Origin: a virus
Lineage: Duplodnaviria > Heunggongvirae > Uroviricota > Caudoviricetes
Length of the DNA stretch: 5,849 nt
Direction: 5' to 3' (one strand)
IMG/VR virus record: IMGVR_UViG_2541047926_000003
Span: 1-5,849 of that record
The notes under the pieces were generated by a model. That model did no database searches, had not been told where the DNA came from, and was given only the letters and a program-made list of their open reading frames with translations. Position 1 is the stretch's first letter. Each line of letters opens with the position of its first letter. A program made the position numbers and the translations under genes. Below, piece by piece: positions 1 through 5,849 of this stretch.

Positions 1-146
1 GCGAACCACTCCGGTGGCTCAACACCTTTGATGGGCGTAAAAACAGGTTCATCTTTGTTCAGGGCTCGCTTGCCGGGGTTTCCGGCCAGCGCCTTGCGCG
101 CCGTTGGCTTGGGGCGACGCCCGGAACGCCCCGCCGTTCCAGCCAT
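1..146 (-). CDS. Terminase small subunit, N-terminal part only (gene continues past the window start)
   Basis: Minus-strand ATG at 146-144 preceded by AGGAG (about 8 nt upstream). Translation MAGTAGRSGRRPKPTARKALAGNPGKRALNKDEPVFTPIKGVEPPEWF resembles, from memory, the N-termini of P27-family phage small terminase subunits (basic stretch, then GNPGKR). Position directly downstream of an HNH endonuclease fits HK97-like packaging modules. Not in the ORF track because it is truncated by the window edge. Confidence 0.65.
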   Translation of the reverse strand, partial: MAGTAGRSGRRPKPTARKALAGNPGKRALNKDEPVFTPIKGVEPPEWF

Positions 147-196
147 ATGCGGCACTCCTGGTTAAATTTCATTTTTCGCGGGTATAAAAAAACGAT

Positions 197-245
197 GGGG
201 CGGGCAGTCCGGAAGACGTCAGGTCACAGAGATTTGACCCGCCCC
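197..245. repeat. GC-rich inverted repeat GGGGCGGG (197-204) / CCCGCCCC (238-245) between the HNH and terminase genes; candidate cos element or intrinsic terminator
   Basis: Perfect 8-bp inverted repeat read directly; arms separated by 33 nt containing the palindromes GACGTC and TCCGGA. On the minus strand the 3' arm is followed 4 nt later by a run of seven T (A-run 186-192 on the + strand). Function is inferred from position only. Confidence 0.4.
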
Positions 246-271
246 TCCCCTCAGACAGTTGAGAGTTATTA

Positions 272-622
272 TCACTTAAGCCGTTCACGGGCCGTCTTCG
301 CCTTATGGCACGGCCAGCACAGACTCTGCAGATTGCAGTCAGCATCAGTGCCGCCATGCGCTTTAGGGATAATGTGGTCAACGGTTTTCGCCTCACGCAC
401 CACACCGGCACGCAGGCACAACTGGCACAGGCCTTTGTCACGCTTCAGCACACGCGCGCGGATAACGTCCCACTTCGAACCATAACCGCGCTGGTGTCGG
501 GACTGTCCAGGTTTGTACTGCTTCCAGCCTTCGCTTTTGTGGCTTTCGCAGTAGCCTGACGGGTCTGTGGTTGTAGAGCGGCAGCCGCGAACACGGCAGG
601 CTTTTGGGGTTCGTGAGGGCAT
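272..622 (-). CDS. HNH endonuclease (phage packaging-associated HNH family)
   Basis: 116-aa ORF with paired Cys motifs (CRVRGC, CQLC, CWPC) and an HNH signature (DHIIPKAHGG ... NLQSLCWPCHKAKT). ATG at 622-620, TGA at 274-272. Sits immediately upstream of the terminase small subunit, as in HK97-like phages. Confidence 0.85.
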   Translation of the reverse strand: MPSRTPKACRVRGCRSTTTDPSGYCESHKSEGWKQYKPGQSRHQRGYGSKWDVIRARVLKRDKGLCQLCLRAGVVREAKTVDHIIPKAHGGTDADCNLQSLCWPCHKAKTARERLK

Positions 623-797
623 TGCATAATACTCTTGGTTGGTTCACGTGCGATATGTGGCATCCTTTTCAGAATCGATGCGTACTCCACTACGGTTTTG
701 CCATAAAAACCTCAGGATTTTTTTGTTAGACAAATCGATAGTAAACGTTCAAATTTACAAGATATTAGCAACAAAATAGCCTCTACAAGGAATCAAT

Positions 798-1346
798 ATG
801 TTTGATTTTACTCATTTTGAAGAGTTGACTTTAGCATCCCATCAACCCGATAGAATAATGACTATAGTTCGGTCCCAAGATGACATTGGTATCTATCTCC
901 GCACTCACCTTTTGATTGAACAAATCTTGGAAGCTTGGATTATCTGTGCCTCTGGTAACAGGGATTTCTTCAGCGGTTTTGGCGAAAATATCAACATGGA
1001 TTTTGCCATTAAAGCTCAGCTTGCGATGAACTATGGGATGAGCTCAGAGCTAAACAAATTTATTCGAAGGTTCAACAACTTCAGAAACAAACGTTCACAT
1101 CAAATTAACAACTCTGACATCACTAACAGTGAGATTGACTCCTTAACAAGTCTAATGGAGCACGGTTACCCTGATAGCTTGACCCCCATTAGAGATTTTA
1201 AGCTTGGGGTTTACGGAGCAGAAACTAGGGTTGTAAGTTTCACGGGATCCTCTACAAGCTTACGCGATAAGCTCATTATGTTATTCGCTATGTTTTCCAT
1301 GAGGGTACATTACGAAGCAAAATGCTTAAGCACGCCACAGAGCTAG
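798..1346 (+). CDS. Hypothetical protein (cargo gene A), 182 aa, with an R-N-x3-H motif suggestive of a HEPN-type RNase
   Basis: ATG at 798 with AAGGA (787-791) 6 nt upstream; TAG at 1344-1346. AT-rich codon usage unlike the flanking phage genes. Motif R96-N-K-R-S-H101 (nt 1083-1100) follows a predicted helix (ELNKFIRRFNNF). No family recognised from memory. Confidence 0.6.
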   Translation: MFDFTHFEELTLASHQPDRIMTIVRSQDDIGIYLRTHLLIEQILEAWIICASGNRDFFSGFGENINMDFAIKAQLAMNYGMSSELNKFIRRFNNFRNKRSHQINNSDITNSEIDSLTSLMEHGYPDSLTPIRDFKLGVYGAETRVVSFTGSSTSLRDKLIMLFAMFSMRVHYEAKCLSTPQS

Positions 1347-1424
1347 GCTCTACTTTGATGCTCTAATAACATTCGATTATTTGCATTTCCTGTTGCATTA
1401 GCGACCTGCCATTGAGGAGTAAAA

Positions 1425-1985
1425 ATGATCCATACGGTACATTTTTTGACAGATGTTACAGTTGCCTCTGTAACTAATCTGATGGATGTCTGCTTAAAAG
1501 CAGTTTCAAATACTAATCAACCAGCAACAGAAATTAAGCTCTATATTTCCAGCAAAGGTGGAGATACAGTTTCAGGCTTTACTGCTTACAATTTTTTAAA
1601 GTCACTTGGTGTAAAGGTTACTACGCATAACCTCAGTAATGTTGAATCAATCGCAAACGTGATCTATATGGCTGGAGAAGTGCGAACTGCCAACCCACTT
1701 TCTCGCTTCCTTCTTCACCCACTGCATTGGGGGTTCGCCGCACCCAGCGCAGATCACCTACGATTGAGAGAATGGGCTTCATGCCTCGATGACGATCTAA
1801 ATCGATTTATTCAAATCATGGATATTGAAACAAAAAAGAAAAATCCAAGTGAGATTGCTGATTGGAAGGATTTGATCACTTCGGCAACCATCCTTCATCC
1901 CGGAAGGGCCTCCGAGTTGGGAATTGTTCATCAAGTCGAGGCTGCAACCATACCCACGGAATCGATCCGCTGGTGGGTACTTTAA
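1425..1985 (+). CDS. ClpP-like (S14/ClpP-fold) serine protease homologue (cargo gene B), 186 aa, N-terminally truncated relative to canonical ClpP
   Basis: ATG at 1425 with GAGGAG (1414-1419) 5 nt upstream; TAA at 1983-1985. Blocks align, from memory, with E. coli ClpP: LYISSKGGDTVSGFTAY vs LYINSPGGVITAGMSIY; THNLSNVESIANVIYMAG vs TICMGQAASMGAFLLTAG; SRFLLHPL vs SRVMIHQP. Candidate triad Ser75 (nt 1647-1649), His98 (1716-1718), Asp149 (1869-1871) has spacings 23 and 51, close to ClpP Ser97/His122/Asp171 (25 and 49). Confidence 0.75.
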   Translation: MIHTVHFLTDVTVASVTNLMDVCLKAVSNTNQPATEIKLYISSKGGDTVSGFTAYNFLKSLGVKVTTHNLSNVESIANVIYMAGEVRTANPLSRFLLHPLHWGFAAPSADHLRLREWASCLDDDLNRFIQIMDIETKKKNPSEIADWKDLITSATILHPGRASELGIVHQVEAATIPTESIRWWVL

Positions 1986-2006
1986 AATCATAATATTCAC
2001 CATAAT

Positions 2007-2034
2007 GCGGGCTTAGAAGCCCGCTCTTTTTTTC
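2007..2034 (+). terminator. Rho-independent terminator ending the + strand cargo transcript
   Basis: GCGGGCTT-AGAAGCCCGC hairpin (2007-2024) followed by TCTTTTTTTC (2025-2034), 22 nt after the gene B stop. The hairpin overlaps the last codons of the convergent Rz1 gene. Confidence 0.6.
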
Positions 2035-2270
2035 TCAGCCTGCCTGATATCAGCCTTATCCCGATTGCACTGGCCAAGTGCCGATAGCAGACTGACATTT
2101 AAATTAAGACTATTACCCCATGTCATATTATCCGGAATGTCAGGATAAGGCGTTTCAGCCGTCAGGCTTGCTGGCAACGGTACCGCCGGAATAGGCACGT
2201 AAACTGTTCGCGTACTTCCGCAACCGGTCAGCAGCGGCAGCAGGCACAGGACGTGAAGCACAATCATCAT
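2013..2270 (-). CDS. Rz1: o-spanin (Rz1-like outer-membrane lipoprotein), overlapped out of frame with Rz
   Basis: Inside the 141-aa track ORF 2013..2438, the segment from ATG-ATG at 2270-2265 reads MMIVLHVLCLLPLLTGCGSTRTVYVPIPAVPLPASLTAETPYPDIP...: hydrophobic signal, lipobox LLTGC, proline-rich mature region. Starts inside Rz in another frame and extends about 140 nt past the Rz stop. Exact start uncertain; an in-frame TTG at 2276-2274 is also possible. Confidence 0.55.
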   Translation of the reverse strand: MMIVLHVLCLLPLLTGCGSTRTVYVPIPAVPLPASLTAETPYPDIPDNMTWGNSLNLNVSLLSALGQCNRDKADIRQAEKKRAGF

Positions 2271-2547
2271 CCGCAACAGCCACTTTGATATCTTCCTGGG
2301 TTCTCTGTGACTCCAGTGTGATCTGCTGTTTTGCATGCTGGTTAGCCTCCAGAACTGTATTGACGATTTGCAGTGATTGCAGGACGTTATTGGTAATGGC
2401 AGTTGCTGATTCAGCATTTCGTACAGCCTCATCAGCACGTTTCTTTTCGTACTGATATTTGCTGTAGTAGTGGTTGGCAGACCAGATGAAAGAACCGATG
2501 ACAGTAAAGAAGAATGCAGCGATAACCAGCTTATAGCTCAACTTCAT
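2155..2547 (-). CDS. Rz: i-spanin (Rz-like inner-membrane spanin component)
   Basis: 130-aa ORF. N-terminal transmembrane segment (KLVIAAFFFTVIGSFIW), then a charged, helical-looking periplasmic region. Start ATG 2547-2545 overlaps the endolysin 3' end by 17 nt. Position right after holin and endolysin is the canonical lysis-cassette order. Confidence 0.7.
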   Translation of the reverse strand: MKLSYKLVIAAFFFTVIGSFIWSANHYYSKYQYEKKRADEAVRNAESATAITNNVLQSLQIVNTVLEANQHAKQQITLESQRTQEDIKVAVADDDCASRPVPAAAADRLRKYANSLRAYSGGTVASKPDG

Positions 2548-3007
2548 TTACCACCCCACCAGCCTCTTTAAACCGGGAAATCAGGTCACTGATTTTATGT
2601 TCATACTGACCATAACCTGCACCAGGTAACGACGCCCAGATATTGCTGCAACGATCGATAGCCTGACGGATATCACCGCGATCAATCATCGGTAAAGCGC
2701 CACGCTCTTTAATCTGCTGCAATGCCACAGCGTCTTGGCTTTTCGGAGAGAAGTCTTTCAGGCCAAGCTGCTTACGATAGGAATCCCACCAACGGGAAAG
2801 AAGCTGGTAGCGCCCGGCTGCTGTTGATTTGAGTTTTGGGTTTAGCGTGACAAGTTTGCGAGGGTGATCGGAGTAATCAGTAAATAGCTCTCCGCCTACA
2901 ATGACGTCATAACCATGATTTCTGGTTTTCTGCCGTCCGTTATCCGTTCCTTCTGACCATGCCACCATATCGAGGAAAGCCTTACGCTGAGGATTAAGAT
3001 TTTGCAT
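2531..3007 (-). CDS. R: Endolysin, lambda R-type lytic transglycosylase
   Basis: 158 aa, near-identical over most of its length to my memory of lambda R (…QRKAFLDM.AWSEGTDNGRQKTRNHGYDVIVGGELFTDYSDHPRKLVTLNPKLKST…), including the catalytic Glu in WSEGT. ATG at 3007-3005 overlaps the holin 3' end. Confidence 0.9.
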   Translation of the reverse strand: MQNLNPQRKAFLDMVAWSEGTDNGRQKTRNHGYDVIVGGELFTDYSDHPRKLVTLNPKLKSTAAGRYQLLSRWWDSYRKQLGLKDFSPKSQDAVALQQIKERGALPMIDRGDIRQAIDRCSNIWASLPGAGYGQYEHKISDLISRFKEAGGVVNEVEL

Positions 3008-3299
3008 TTTTCACCCCTGTCAGTCGTTCCCAGAAGTACGTCAGTGCAACCGAACCCATCGCACCACTAATCCCCGCTGTCGCGAGAATCATGTAAATAC
3101 TGAATCCACTTTCGATGCTGATCAGGCCACCAATAACACCGGTGAATCCTGATACCACTATCTGAGCCAGAGCATTTATCCAACTCCACGTTGCTTTACT
3201 CTGCTTCACATCTATCAGGTAGCGGACCAGACCGCCCCAACCTGCGATGATCAGCAAAACGAGCCAGAACGCTCCGGCAAGGCTCTCTTTTTCGTGCAT
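2994..3299 (-). CDS. Holin (about three predicted transmembrane segments)
   Basis: Track ORF 2994..3311 starts at a TTG (3311-3309); the first ATG is at 3299-3297 (MHEKESLAGAFWLVLLIIAGWGG…). Three hydrophobic stretches and a charged C-terminus (ERLTGVKNAKS). Lies directly upstream of and overlapping the endolysin gene. Start codon choice unresolved, and no clear SD before either candidate. Confidence 0.7.
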   Translation of the reverse strand: MHEKESLAGAFWLVLLIIAGWGGLVRYLIDVKQSKATWSWINALAQIVVSGFTGVIGGLISIESGFSIYMILATAGISGAMGSVALTYFWERLTGVKNAKS

Positions 3300-3413
3300 A
3301 TGAATAGCCAATGTTTCGCCGCCGACAAAAGGCCGGGACGTTAAATGTCAGAAATCAGGCTCACGGGGTAATTTAACGACAAAGCACGGAGTTGATGCTC
3401 CCCGCAAGCCTGG

Positions 3414-3439
3414 AATAAAAAAGCCAGCATGTAGCTGGC
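3414..3439 (-). terminator. tR'-like intrinsic terminator of the short late leader transcript (minus strand)
   Basis: Minus strand reads GCCAGC-TACAT-GCTGGC followed by TTTTTTATT (stem 3439-3423, T-run 3422-3414). Located about 180 nt downstream of the Q stop and about 100 nt upstream of the holin, matching the lambda pR'-6S RNA-tR' layout. Stem is only 6 bp. Confidence 0.4.
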
Positions 3440-3561
3440 AACAGAGGGTTAAGCAATATCAACTCAACAGCTGAAGACACCCTGGCTGGGGTAGGTTGGA
3501 AGGCTACTCACCGTCCAGAAACAGAAAAGCCCAAAGTTTTAAACCTCGGGCTTGAATTTGG

Positions 3562-3590
3562 ATTACTGCCAGTGCGTACAACATTGGCAA
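3562..3590 (-). promoter_or_regulatory. Candidate late promoter (pR'-like), where a Q antiterminator would be expected to act
   Basis: Minus strand TTGCCA (3590-3585), 17-nt spacer, AGTAAT (3567-3562), just downstream of the Q stop codon. Hexamers are imperfect; assignment rests mainly on position. Confidence 0.3.
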
Positions 3591-3620
3591 AATATCAGAT
3601 TTACACGAAATATATGCTTT

Positions 3621-4310
3621 TTAATCCAGTTTTGCAATACTTTGCTGTGAAAATGTCGTCTTTTGTTTTGAACGTGTTTTCGTTAAAAGCAATAAAGCTT
3701 GGCTATCAAGCTGTAGAAAAATGTGCTTCATTGCAACCCAGCGTTCAGTAAATGTCTCAGACCAGTTTTTTGATGTCACTCCCACCAGTGATGCCAGCTC
3801 CTGGTATTCATAGGTCTTACGCCCTGCCAGCTCGTTCTTCACATCCTGTGCCGCCAGCCAGATCAACTTCTTTAAGCGTTCCAGTGTCTTACTGGCAATT
3901 TTTCTTGTACCTAACAGAGCCTTAAACTCGTTCCATGCCCACTGCGTTACGGCAACCTGATGCTCCCAGCGAACACTTTCGCTGTAACTCCACAGCAACC
4001 ACGCTTTCTGGTGTTCTTCGAGAGACAGAACCGCGCGGCGCCATGAAGATGTTGAGAACTCAACCTGGCTGACCAGTGCAATGGATGAACCTTTTGCGTA
4101 CGACTGCTTACCGGAAATCGGCGGATTATCCAGCGTAATCATCCTGCCAGTTACCTCATCCAGAATGCGCGGCTTCTTTCGTTTGTATGTACCAGTATCA
4201 AATTGAGCATGCTCCAGCCAGGCTTCAAGCTGGCCTTTCGTTACTCCGCTCAAATCAGCGGTAGCCACCATGAGTTGCTCGCGAACATACTGTAAATATT
4301 GGATATTCAT
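3621..4310 (-). CDS. Putative late antiterminator (Q-like protein)
   Basis: 229-aa ORF, ATG at 4310-4308 with GAAAGGAG 7 nt upstream. Lies between the rusA-ylcG block and the late promoter and lysis cassette, the position Q occupies in lambdoid phages. No similarity to lambda Q recalled; the family assignment is positional and needs a profile search. Confidence 0.55.
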   Translation of the reverse strand: MNIQYLQYVREQLMVATADLSGVTKGQLEAWLEHAQFDTGTYKRKKPRILDEVTGRMITLDNPPISGKQSYAKGSSIALVSQVEFSTSSWRRAVLSLEEHQKAWLLWSYSESVRWEHQVAVTQWAWNEFKALLGTRKIASKTLERLKKLIWLAAQDVKNELAGRKTYEYQELASLVGVTSKNWSETFTERWVAMKHIFLQLDSQALLLLTKTRSKQKTTFSQQSIAKLD

Positions 4311-4447
4311 GCGGCAGCTCCTTTCAGTGTTTTGGCGTAATTCTTCAGTATTCGGTAATCGGTCAAAACAGAACCGGGAAAACGATATAAGCGCAGGCGC
4401 ACCCAGCGGCGGCGAAGACGTTCTGCCATATAAGACTCAAACATCAT
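4307..4447 (-). CDS. ylcG: YlcG-like small protein (46 aa)
   Basis: Absent from the ORF track (too short). Minus-strand ATG-ATG at 4447-4442, stop TGA at 4309-4307. Translation [46 protein letters not shown]. Start overlaps the rusA stop (ATGA) and stop overlaps the Q start (ATGA). Same size and rusA-ylcG-Q position as DLP12 ylcG. Confidence 0.6.
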
Positions 4448-4806
4448 TCATCTCCCAGTTCGGTGATGGTCAGCTCCAGCTTCCCACCTTTGGTAACGGG
4501 CATCTTCACAACGCGATAATCAACGACCTGAGCATCATCCAACCAGAAACCTGCTTTGGTGAGTGCGTCAAAAGCGGCCTTTTGTAGATTATCCAGGTCA
4601 CGGCGACGGCGATCCGGCATGTGACACTCAATGCGGATTTTCACTGGCATAGCCAGGCCGATATCCAGCATTGCGTTTTTAATGATTTGAGCGACGTTAT
4701 CGCGGTATGCCTGTCCCTCTGCGCTGACGTGCGTGCGCCCGCGATTATGCCGGTAGTAGCGGTTATTGCTCGGCGGCCAGGGTAGTGTGATGTGGTAAGT
4801 ATTCAC
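4444..4806 (-). CDS. rusA: Crossover junction endodeoxyribonuclease RusA (Holliday junction resolvase)
   Basis: From the GTG at 4806-4804 the product (V/M)[37 protein letters not shown]…[20 protein letters not shown] is 120 aa and matches my memory of E. coli RusA nearly residue for residue. The track ORF (4444..4869, 141 aa) is an upstream in-frame extension. GTG start overlaps the ybcO stop (GTGA). Confidence 0.9.
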
Positions 4807-5093
4807 GCCTTGATTACCCCCTCTTTCAGCCAGATAACCTGCGTTCTCGCCATACCTTCCAGCGCGCATTCTTTTGCGTACTCAGCATCGACAAAATGCG
4901 TGCGGCGGTCGATCTCATCGTGACAGGCAGAACATGCAATGGTGGCAATCAGGTCTGGCGGTTTGGTACCGGTGCCACACAATCCAGCCAGCCGGATATG
5001 TGCCAGTACAGACGTTTCAGAATTACCATTACATACGCCAGGGATTCTTACCTGGCATTCCCGACCACGCGCTGCTTTTCTCAAATCAGCCAT
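4803..5093 (-). CDS. ybcO: YbcO-like protein (DUF1364-type; putative nuclease)
   Basis: From ATG at 5093-5091 (AAGGAGG 4 nt upstream) the product [62 protein letters not shown]… is 96 aa, with Cys/His clusters. The track ORF starts at an upstream TTG (109 aa). Size, sequence and ninE-ybcO-rusA synteny match DLP12 ybcO as I recall it. Confidence 0.8.
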
Positions 5094-5256
5094 GATTCCT
5101 CCTTGCTGCCAGTCGCAACCATTTTTTATCAACCAGGCTGGCGGTATACCCTAGCAGTGTTGGTATTTCGGATGGCTTCAGCTCAGGCTTACGCTTACGA
5201 CGATTTGGTACTCTGTAGATGTGTCCGTTCATGACCCGAATAAGCGGTGTAGTCAT
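5086..5256 (-). CDS. ninE: NinE-like protein
   Basis: From ATG at 5256-5254 (AGGAGG 4 nt upstream) the product [56 protein letters not shown] is 56 aa; the basic KPxxKP…WLR pattern resembles lambda NinE as remembered. The track ORF (77 aa) is an upstream extension. Start overlaps the upstream gene's stop (TAATG). Confidence 0.65.
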   Translation of the reverse strand: MTTPLIRVMNGHIYRVPNRRKRKPELKPSEIPTLLGYTASLVDKKWLRLAARRNHG

Positions 5257-5711
5257 TACGCCTCCTGCTTGTCGCGCAGCAGCTGGAACTCGCAGCTCTG
5301 TGGAATAGTCAGGTGGCAACCAATATTCATCGCCCAGGCTTCAACCTTACACAGGAAGACATACATCTCTCCGGTATCAAGATCGGAGGTATGGCGTAAC
5401 GACTGGATAGTGGTGATATCACCGGTTACGACATCAACCAGGTCTTTGGTTTCATAACCGAGATATGTGTGTTTGAGAGCATCTTTTACCCAAGCTGGAG
5501 TGGCGAACGTTTTACCCCTGCTGATGAGGTATTCACTGATTTCGCTGTACCACATGTGGCTGAGTGCATTCTGGGAAAGACTGCGTCTCTCGCGCCACGG
5601 TTTAAGCATCATGCGAAAGCATTTTCCGTCCTCCAGATAAGGCTGGATCTGCTGACCGATAGCGGTGAAGTTACCGCGATGCAATTTGATGCCGTCTTGT
5701 GGGAGGTTCAC
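5256..5711 (-). CDS. ybcN: NinB/Orf-family protein (YbcN-like), 151 aa
   Basis: GTG start at 5711-5709 with GGAGGTG upstream and an in-frame TGA at 5717-5715 fixing the 5' limit. Contains [15 protein letters not shown], resembling the RNRSLDQNRKLW motif I recall in lambda NinB/Orf. Size and position upstream of ninE match DLP12 ybcN. Confidence 0.7.
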
Positions 5712-5849
5712 GCTTCACCTCCGCAGAGGTCAAACGCTGGATGCAAAAAATCGCAGGTGCATCTCTGCATCTGTGAAGGGAGAAGAGAGTTTGGATTGTA
5801 TGTGCGCATAAACGTCCCCGTTTAGCGCAGAAGTCACCGGAGTTGTTCA

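Follow-up and report, generated by a model that had tools for sequence, protein, structure and literature searches.

A candidate HepS-like HEPN gene and a short ClpP paralogue as two probably separate accessory modules in the bor slot of a lambdoid Escherichia coli prophage

Introduction

The DNA analysed here is a stretch of 5,849 nucleotides (IMG/VR record IMGVR_UViG_2541047926_000003, positions 1 to 5,849; the window below means this whole stretch), which is a piece of a lambdoid Escherichia coli prophage. The subject of the analysis is a cargo of two genes, A and B, located at 623–2034 between the lysis and packaging genes. In lambda and related prophages the same slot is held by bor or its homologue iss, and the product of these genes is an outer-membrane lipoprotein giving serum resistance.

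The closest described relative of gene A is HepS, which the Gifsy-1 prophage of Salmonella Typhimurium 14028 encodes as a "HEPN solo" defence element (Sargen et al., Nature 2026; PMC13043305; structures PDB 9OIJ and 9OIK). HepS was described in January 2026 as a single protein that has no partner gene and is non-toxic at rest, when it forms a tetramer with occluded active sites. It is activated allosterically by a 32-residue segment of the siphovirus J tail-tip protein, with which the N- and C-terminal segments of HepS form a β-sheet; the activated enzyme cleaves tRNA anticodon loops and thereby aborts the infection (PMC13043305). The same paper lists 393 homologues of HepS.

The closest described relative of gene B is ClpP1 of Pseudomonas plecoglossicida (PpClpP1), in which an N-terminal truncation removes the axial loops (Chen et al., PLoS Pathog 2026; PMC12900304). 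This protein forms a homotetradecamer with a 42.7 Å pore and has a Ser-His-Pro triad that requires Ser and His but not the third residue. On its own PpClpP1 shows weak peptidase activity and does not bind ClpX; its mixed tetradecamers with canonical ClpP are more active with ClpX (PMC12900304).

We consider it likely that the segment 623–2055 is a stack of two separate accessory modules, one with the HepS-like gene A and the other with the short-ClpP gene B, for which roles can be proposed by homology.

Two modules and their junction

The cargo is made up of the following parts:

623–686, spacer between the prophage backbone and the A module, with boundaries from blastn and no counterpart in loci that carry A only
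687–797, + strand, upstream leader of the A module with AAGGA; accompanies A in the A-only loci L027 and L028
798–1346, + strand, gene A, a single-domain HEPN protein of 182 amino acids with the motif R96-N97-K-R-S-H101
1347–1365, junction of the A and B modules (blastn of L027/L028 versus L062; terminator scan)
1366–1424, + strand, leader of the B module with GAGGAG; accompanies B in the B-only locus L062
1425–1985, + strand, gene B, a short ClpP paralogue of 186 amino acids and of the PpClpP1 type (Pfam, PDB and Foldseek)
2007–2033, + strand, intrinsic terminator after B, GCGGGCTTAGAAGCCCGC followed by a T-run (terminator scan)

Each half of the cargo is found without the other. L027 and L028, which carry A at 84% protein identity and no B, align by blastn with 687–1364 of the window, and L062, which carries B at 96% protein identity and no A, aligns with 1366–2349. 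The two blocks of homology meet at 1364/1366, i.e. within two bases, as expected from a recent end-to-end juxtaposition of two morons.

To check co-occurrence of the genes, all fetched loci were searched with A and B by tblastn. In IMG/VR, B lies within 4 kb of A at 6 of the 35 loci of the A family, and A lies within 4 kb of B at 6 of 80 loci of the B family (the best 80 of 126). These are the same six loci, and all of them are 100% identical copies of the cassette; B is absent within 4 kb of the other 29 A loci, and A is absent near the other 74 B loci. The metagenomes give the same picture: 2 of 12 A loci (L151 and L152) have B, both as 100% identical copies, and no B was found within 3–10 kb of the 10 non-identical metagenome A loci, the contigs with A homologues of 66%, 53% and 46% identity, and phi80. 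None of the four distant A loci from species-representative genomes has B within 10 kb. The remaining paired locus fetched, the E. coli genome L001, carries the same cassette, so that the protein identity among the paired cassettes fetched is 100% throughout.

Diverged copies of A (84–34% identity), on the contrary, are always without B nearby, and diverged copies of B (96–50%, among the loci kept) are always without A. The homologues of A with less than 100% identity have no constant neighbour except phage lysis and terminase genes. As judged by these alignments, adjacency is not kept across diverged homologues, which argues that A and B are not a dedicated two-gene system.

Both families were also met in a 44.8-kb metagenomic prophage (JGI 3300011912, Ga0121678_100150), which codes for an A homologue (59% identity) in the gap between Rz and terminase (L145, 10001–10564) and a B homologue (69%) among baseplate genes (L146, 10001–10600), both on the opposite strand. 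With 15 kb between them, the two genes are again separate units.

Base composition and the variable site

Genes A and B converge on Rz/Rz1, and every flanking phage gene is on the minus strand. An earlier note on this DNA, made from the letters alone, had already given the two genes these positions and this orientation, and it is borne out by the open reading frame calls and by RefSeq, which calls the same two coding sequences in a 99.9% identical copy of the cassette. The note had also assigned a Shine-Dalgarno sequence to each gene and a clean intrinsic terminator to the pair. Both can be read directly: AAGGA is situated 6 nt ahead of the start codon of A and GAGGAG 5 nt ahead of that of B, and the terminator at 2007–2033 has a 7-bp stem (6 G-C pairs), a 4-nt loop and a T-run. 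It is the sole strong terminator found by the scan of 560–2100; none was detected between A and B.

The GC content of about 38% estimated in the same note for the cargo, against about 48–50% for the flanks, was right in direction and slightly off in its figures, the computed values being 40.9% for 623–2034, 58.5% for 1–622 and 49.4% for 2035–5849. Of all 1412-nt segments of the sequence, the one beginning at 621 has the lowest GC, and for non-overlapping segments of this length the value is 0.464–0.520; the part ahead of A (623–797) reaches 36.6%. The GC at third codon positions is 0.38 in B and 0.46 in A versus 0.45–0.63 in the flanking genes.

Homology of the flanks to related E. coli prophages ends at 622–635 and resumes at 2053–2056 (blastn), and the slot between these borders is variable. 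In strain RM9245 (L002) there is nothing between the HNH and Rz1 blocks. The same slot holds a hypothetical minus-strand open reading frame of 170 amino acids in NT1F25 (L003, 1230–1739), a hypothetical + strand one of 125 amino acids in STEC005 (L004, 1250–1624) and iss on the + strand in strain 123636 (L005, 1647–1940). The earlier view of the site as the equivalent of the bor locus agrees with these sister prophages, iss being in exactly the same slot. Of 5426 complete E. coli genomes, 15 have the cassette, in each case on the chromosome and with 98.7–99.9% DNA identity; the whole window is matched by only one E. coli genome, and the backbone around the cassette is therefore mosaic. No match to the cassette was obtained by megablast among 50,697 phage records. 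The foreign composition and the variable lysis/packaging hotspot support horizontal acquisition of the cargo, as had been proposed in the note.

Gene A

The product of A is a stand-alone protein of less than 250 amino acids with a single HEPN domain. Pfam gives only a sub-threshold match to Abi_2 (0.042), and in PHROGs the protein falls into phrog_5483, a group with no known function. Its family is small, with 16 clusters (90% identity) in a collection of 5.8 billion sequences; a search of 1.84 billion with a family profile yielded 191 representatives (E ≤0.001). Six residues (E41, K72, N93, R96, N97 and H101) are invariant in 60 remote relatives with 19–66% identity, and three of them, R96, N97 and H101, are invariant in the 16 close homologues as well. 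The Rx4-6H motif is present, and the N..RN...H signature of the family is typical of HEPN nucleases. Pfam matches within the extended family (RiboL-PSP 8, Abi_2 6, Apea 2, HepT 1 and Csm6 1) are all to HEPN families; the 60 relatives were scanned singly, and Abi_2 was counted (6 of 60) at 0.01 or better.

The family profile of A matches HepS with E=6e-13, and the pairwise identity to the HepS fragment printed by HMMER, which was used here in place of the full-length sequence, is 25%. R96, N97, H101, I103 and F61 of A align with R100, N101, H105, I107 and F66 of HepS. These HepS positions include the catalytic residues, the residue repositioning the catalytic His and a residue of the tetramer interface (PMC13043305). 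The homology is detectable in both sequence and fold; the model of A has a closing helix (155–178) and a small hairpin (135–147). Foldseek of this model against the viral structures of BFVD returned nothing significant, and tblastn of the HepS fragment against the phage records gave no match. By profile and motif, gene A codes for a distant homologue of HepS and is a candidate HepS-like abortive-infection RNase.

Gene B

The Pfam domain CLP_protease is found in B with E=2.1e-12 (47.7 bits, cut-off 20.2). The best PDB match is PpClpP1 (9UXT, E=1.6e-32), which aligns from end to end (residues 3–185 of B with 4–181 of PpClpP1). The AF2 model of B (pLDDT 88.7) has 9uxt_A as the top Foldseek match with a TM-score of 0.86, and canonical ClpPs follow with 0.68–0.76.

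Ser75 and His98 are invariant in the B family. The third position of the triad is Ala154 in B and is occupied by Ala, Ser or Thr across the family, never by Asp. B is also devoid of the N-terminal axial loops on which ClpX and ClpA dock: it begins directly at strand β1, and its residue 5 aligns with residue 28 of E. coli ClpP. With the NCBIfam equivalog clpP (TIGR00493) B reaches 23.9 bits, the cut-off being 308.6 bits. Having neither the third Asp nor the axial loops, B by its sequence falls outside the canonical ATP-dependent ClpPs (MEROPS S14); sequence and model together identify it as an N-terminally truncated ClpP of the PpClpP1 type and not a head protease.

In one metagenomic copy of the cassette (L152, 10628–10989) there is an apparent frameshift in B at residues ~61–65, which is either a sequencing error or a sign of a pseudogene.

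Where each family lives

Homologues of A with 66%, 53% and 46% identity are solo genes on the opposite strand, adjoining the small terminase gene. In prophages of Enterobacter, Citrobacter-like and other hosts, family members with at least 56% identity occupy the gap between lysis and packaging genes, at a distance of 20–93 nt from the small terminase gene and with the opposite orientation. Some more distant relatives, including phi80 gp52, are just downstream of the lysis genes. The phi80 protein (ABF05_gp52; L136, 1172–1786) is annotated as hypothetical and is 34% identical to A; its gene is found downstream of Rz, in the interval from rha to the cos end, and has the opposite orientation. 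Another member of the A family is found in Salmonella phage FSL SP-016 at 36293–36790.

The B family occurs at several moron sites, usually downstream of mnt. Among the same best 80 of its 126 IMG/VR loci, B directly follows an mnt-like gene at 42 and adjoins Rz at 17, the remaining ones being elsewhere. A Klebsiella homologue (79%) is solo beside Rz1, a Pectobacterium one (53%) follows mnt in a P22-like immI module, a Chromobacterium one (53%) is between tail and lysis genes, a Proteus one (50%) is beside the N gene and yet another sits inside the baseplate genes.

In the mnt-B arrangement a gene of an mnt-like ribbon-helix-helix repressor is followed by co-oriented B with overlapping stop and start, the pair being within an immI-type module with divergent arc and antirepressor genes (L015/L016, 5747–6537; L137 and L138, 3253–4037). 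Such mnt-B operons occur in phiv205-1 and PhiR12_1, and in phage PhiR12_1 the whole immI-type module is placed between tail genes L and K. No description of an mnt-clpP operon was found in the searchable literature.

Several observations concern the surroundings of individual B homologues. The Klebsiella protein P0023 (L012–L014, 6001–6717) is called with 238 amino acids and its similarity to B begins at residue 53; its annotated start is probably too far upstream. The Proteus prophage (L018–L020, 7421–9051) has a pair of DUF4411 and Peptidase_M78 (ImmA/IrrE-like) genes near solo B and N, upstream of the S24 repressor gene. Short ClpP genes of Pseudomonas (L139–L144, ~6001–6552) are consistently flanked by genes of a KGG-repeat (stress) protein and of DUF6555.

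Proposed explanation

By homology to HepS, the first module (687–1364) would supply the lysogen with A as an inactive oligomer. A late-made protein of a foreign phage would switch A on, and its RNxxxH site would then cut RNA, resulting in abortive infection. A defence role for A is probable by analogy, so that the anti-phage or abortive-infection function ascribed to the cargo in the earlier note probably holds for A, and its assignment to a paired system is not supported. The carrier prophage in E. coli LD91-1 (NZ_CP042585) has genes of tail sheath and tail tube; one may speculate that, if the trigger of A is a siphovirus J-type tail tip, the carrier would not trigger its own defence.

The second module (1366 to ~2050) would, by homology to PpClpP1, give rise to an open-pored tetradecamer of B with weak peptidase activity and no ability to bind ClpX. 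B may also co-assemble with host ClpP, altering ClpXP proteolysis in the lysogen. The position of B in the mnt operon and at the sites of exclusion genes suggests expression in the lysogen, and by analogy with these sites its role could be in lysogeny control or in exclusion.

In this E. coli lineage A and B are probably co-transcribed, from 687–797 to 2007–2033, because there is no terminator between them and the only one follows B. The leader at 687–797 is the presumed promoter region of A.

Several points weigh against this explanation. The promoter scan gave no sigma-70-like promoter upstream of A or B, its single match falling inside A. A and HepS share 20–25% identity, and A is ~25 residues shorter (182 amino acids versus 212–228 in the HepS PDB constructs); because of this its trigger-binding termini, hence the trigger and the RNA target, may differ from those of HepS. 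The biochemistry assumed for B is taken from a chromosomal Pseudomonas protein of 36–45% identity in a non-phage context. Some observations also speak for a link between A and B: only 78 nt separate the genes, which have the same orientation and a common terminator, the presence of both families in the 44.8-kb prophage leaves room for non-random co-residence, and some functional synergy between A and B is conceivable. The counts for B in IMG/VR, finally, cover the 80 best of its loci (L056–L135).

Alternative explanations

B alone may be an anti-phage or superinfection-exclusion factor, a gate-less ClpP subunit which degrades incoming phage proteins or, by entering mixed rings with host ClpP, speeds up the turnover by ClpXP of phage proteins such as replication initiators of the lambda O type. 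Its catalytic Ser and His are invariant, and in every case it is a moron, either on the opposite strand or in a lysogen operon, at sites where model phages hold sieA, sieB or bor-type genes, namely downstream of mnt, beside N and beside Rz1. The higher ClpXP activity reported for mixed tetradecamers of PpClpP1 (PMC12900304) points in the same direction. On the other hand, B has no PADLOC model and nothing on such a factor was found in the searchable literature; the same family is an ordinary chromosomal gene beside stress genes in Pseudomonas; and the mnt linkage fits antirepressor control or host proteostasis equally well. We regard this possibility as real and, on balance, doubtful. A broader version, held somewhat more tentatively still, is that B stands for a class of lysogen-expressed prophage functions not described so far, a gate-less ClpP subunit which enters the host ClpP barrel or acts alone and so reprograms proteolysis, excluding superinfecting phages or enforcing lysogeny through removal of the antirepressor, possibly in synergy with A. 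Removal of the antirepressor would explain why B is so often in an operon with mnt.

The earlier note had suggested that a HEPN-like effector and a ClpP-family protease are paired in a defence system. Both family assignments proved right, the first by the invariant RNxxxH motif and the distant homology to HepS, the second by the CLP_protease domain and the match to 9UXT. In such a two-component system the protease would sense or process something and would activate or restrain the HEPN nuclease. The idea draws on the compact arrangement of the genes already mentioned, on the foreign composition of both, on the presence of both families in a second, unrelated prophage and on the cassette being intact in 15 E. 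coli genomes (identity of at least 98.7%). Against it, adjacency is limited to one near-identical lineage and diverged copies are solo; the two blocks of homology join at 1364/1366; the second prophage has its A and B homologues in different operon contexts with 15 kb between them; and HepS acts alone, non-toxic at rest and with no partner gene (PMC13043305). Nor is such a pair among described systems: neither A nor B matches any model of PADLOC-DB v2.0 (2023, which pre-dates HepS) at E up to 1, in line with the note, which had recognised no named defence system here. In the searchable literature no system of HEPN plus ClpP, no ClpP-type moron and no ClpP-like defence gene of a prophage was found, and nothing relevant on an immI-linked Clp protease or on the two RefSeq accessions. 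A dedicated pair is therefore improbable. The role of B as an antitoxin or immunity partner of A was considered separately and dismissed, A relatives being solo and HepS being non-toxic at rest.

It is very unlikely that A is not a nuclease but a regulator of the MtlR/YggD type with a HEPN fold and no catalytic function; this candidate was dismissed on the invariance of the catalytic motif.

The reading of B as a ClpP-related prohead maturation protease, i.e. a structural enzyme, rests on PHROG phrog_94 "head maturation protease" (1.8e-25), NCBIfam NF045542 (1.4e-13) and one GenBank record which labels a homologue so, but it is dismissed on genomic context and model score as having next to no probability: NF045542 reaches 51.2 bits, far under its 120-bit cut-off, the gene is not part of the head module and has the opposite orientation, a separate HK97-family prohead protease is encoded between portal and capsid of this prophage, homologues of B are in immI, N-proximal and tail regions, and the 50 best Foldseek matches listed contain no prohead protease, PpClpP1 being the best and the rest cellular ClpPs.

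Other features of the window

The prophage backbone around the cargo has the following features:

272–622, minus strand, HNH endonuclease (Pfam HNH 5.3e-15; RefSeq annotation), left flank and conserved edge of the backbone
2155–2547, minus strand, Rz, with Rz1/lysC embedded (~2013–2267, minus strand, coordinates transferred from RefSeq)
2531–3007, minus strand, GH24 lysozyme
2994–3311, minus strand, holin
3621–4310, minus strand, antiterminator Q
minus strand, backbone genes NinB, YbcO, RusA and YlcG

The HNH gene adjoins the start of the gene of a P27-family small terminase. At the other edge the + strand terminator hairpin overlaps the stop codon of Rz1/lysC (2013–2015), and the final ~40 nt of lysC accompany the B module and not the backbone. 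The C-terminus of Rz1 varies between prophages with and without B because the end of lysC belongs to the B module.

Rfam and tRNA scans of the cargo gave no match. A match below the Rfam threshold, to the isrJ small RNA, falls in the backbone at 3526–3605 on the minus strand (28.5 bits versus a gathering score of 37, E=0.031). It sits in the intergenic region between Q and holin, the expected place of the late promoter and leader. The GC content falls to 0.365–0.38 at 3501–3800.

Significance

The claimed two-gene defence system gives way to something simpler, two morons side by side, and the case exemplifies how weak adjacency inside a hotspot is as evidence of functional pairing. With gene A the HepS family, of which the Gifsy-1 protein is so far the only characterised member, gains a distant branch from E. 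coli. This branch includes phi80 gp52 and occupies the classic bor slot of lambdoid prophages, and its carrier here has contractile-tail genes. The branch is hence a natural place to ask if HepS-like proteins sense triggers besides the J tail tip.

The more novel element is B as a prophage accessory gene rather than the A/B pair. A short ClpP paralogue circulates as a moron among enterobacterial temperate phages and is most often co-transcribed with mnt. This suggests a possible tie of prophage maintenance or exclusion to host Clp proteolysis, of which no description was found in the searchable literature.

Comparison with known systems

With HepS, gene A has in common the absence of a conserved partner gene and the frequent location in prophages. 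The carriers differ: that of A has contractile-tail genes, whereas Gifsy-1, the carrier of HepS, is a siphovirus. Abi_2 (AbiD/AbiF) and other HEPN Abi proteins share the HEPN fold and the RNxxxH motif with A, but the Abi_2 scores of the A family are all far under the Pfam gathering threshold, and HepS is a much closer relative.

B resembles PpClpP1 in its length (186 versus 183 amino acids in the chain), in end-to-end homology and loss of the loops, and in the retention of catalytic Ser and His with a non-acidic third triad residue. This third residue is Ala in B and Pro in PpClpP1. In contrast to B, which is a prophage moron, genes of the PpClpP1 type are chromosomal and lie beside KGG and DUF6555 genes.

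The cargo as a whole is comparable to bor/iss of lambda in its Rz-cos slot, opposite-strand orientation, own terminator and foreign composition. The bor/iss proteins are unrelated to A and B, and the slot here carries two cytoplasmic enzymes.

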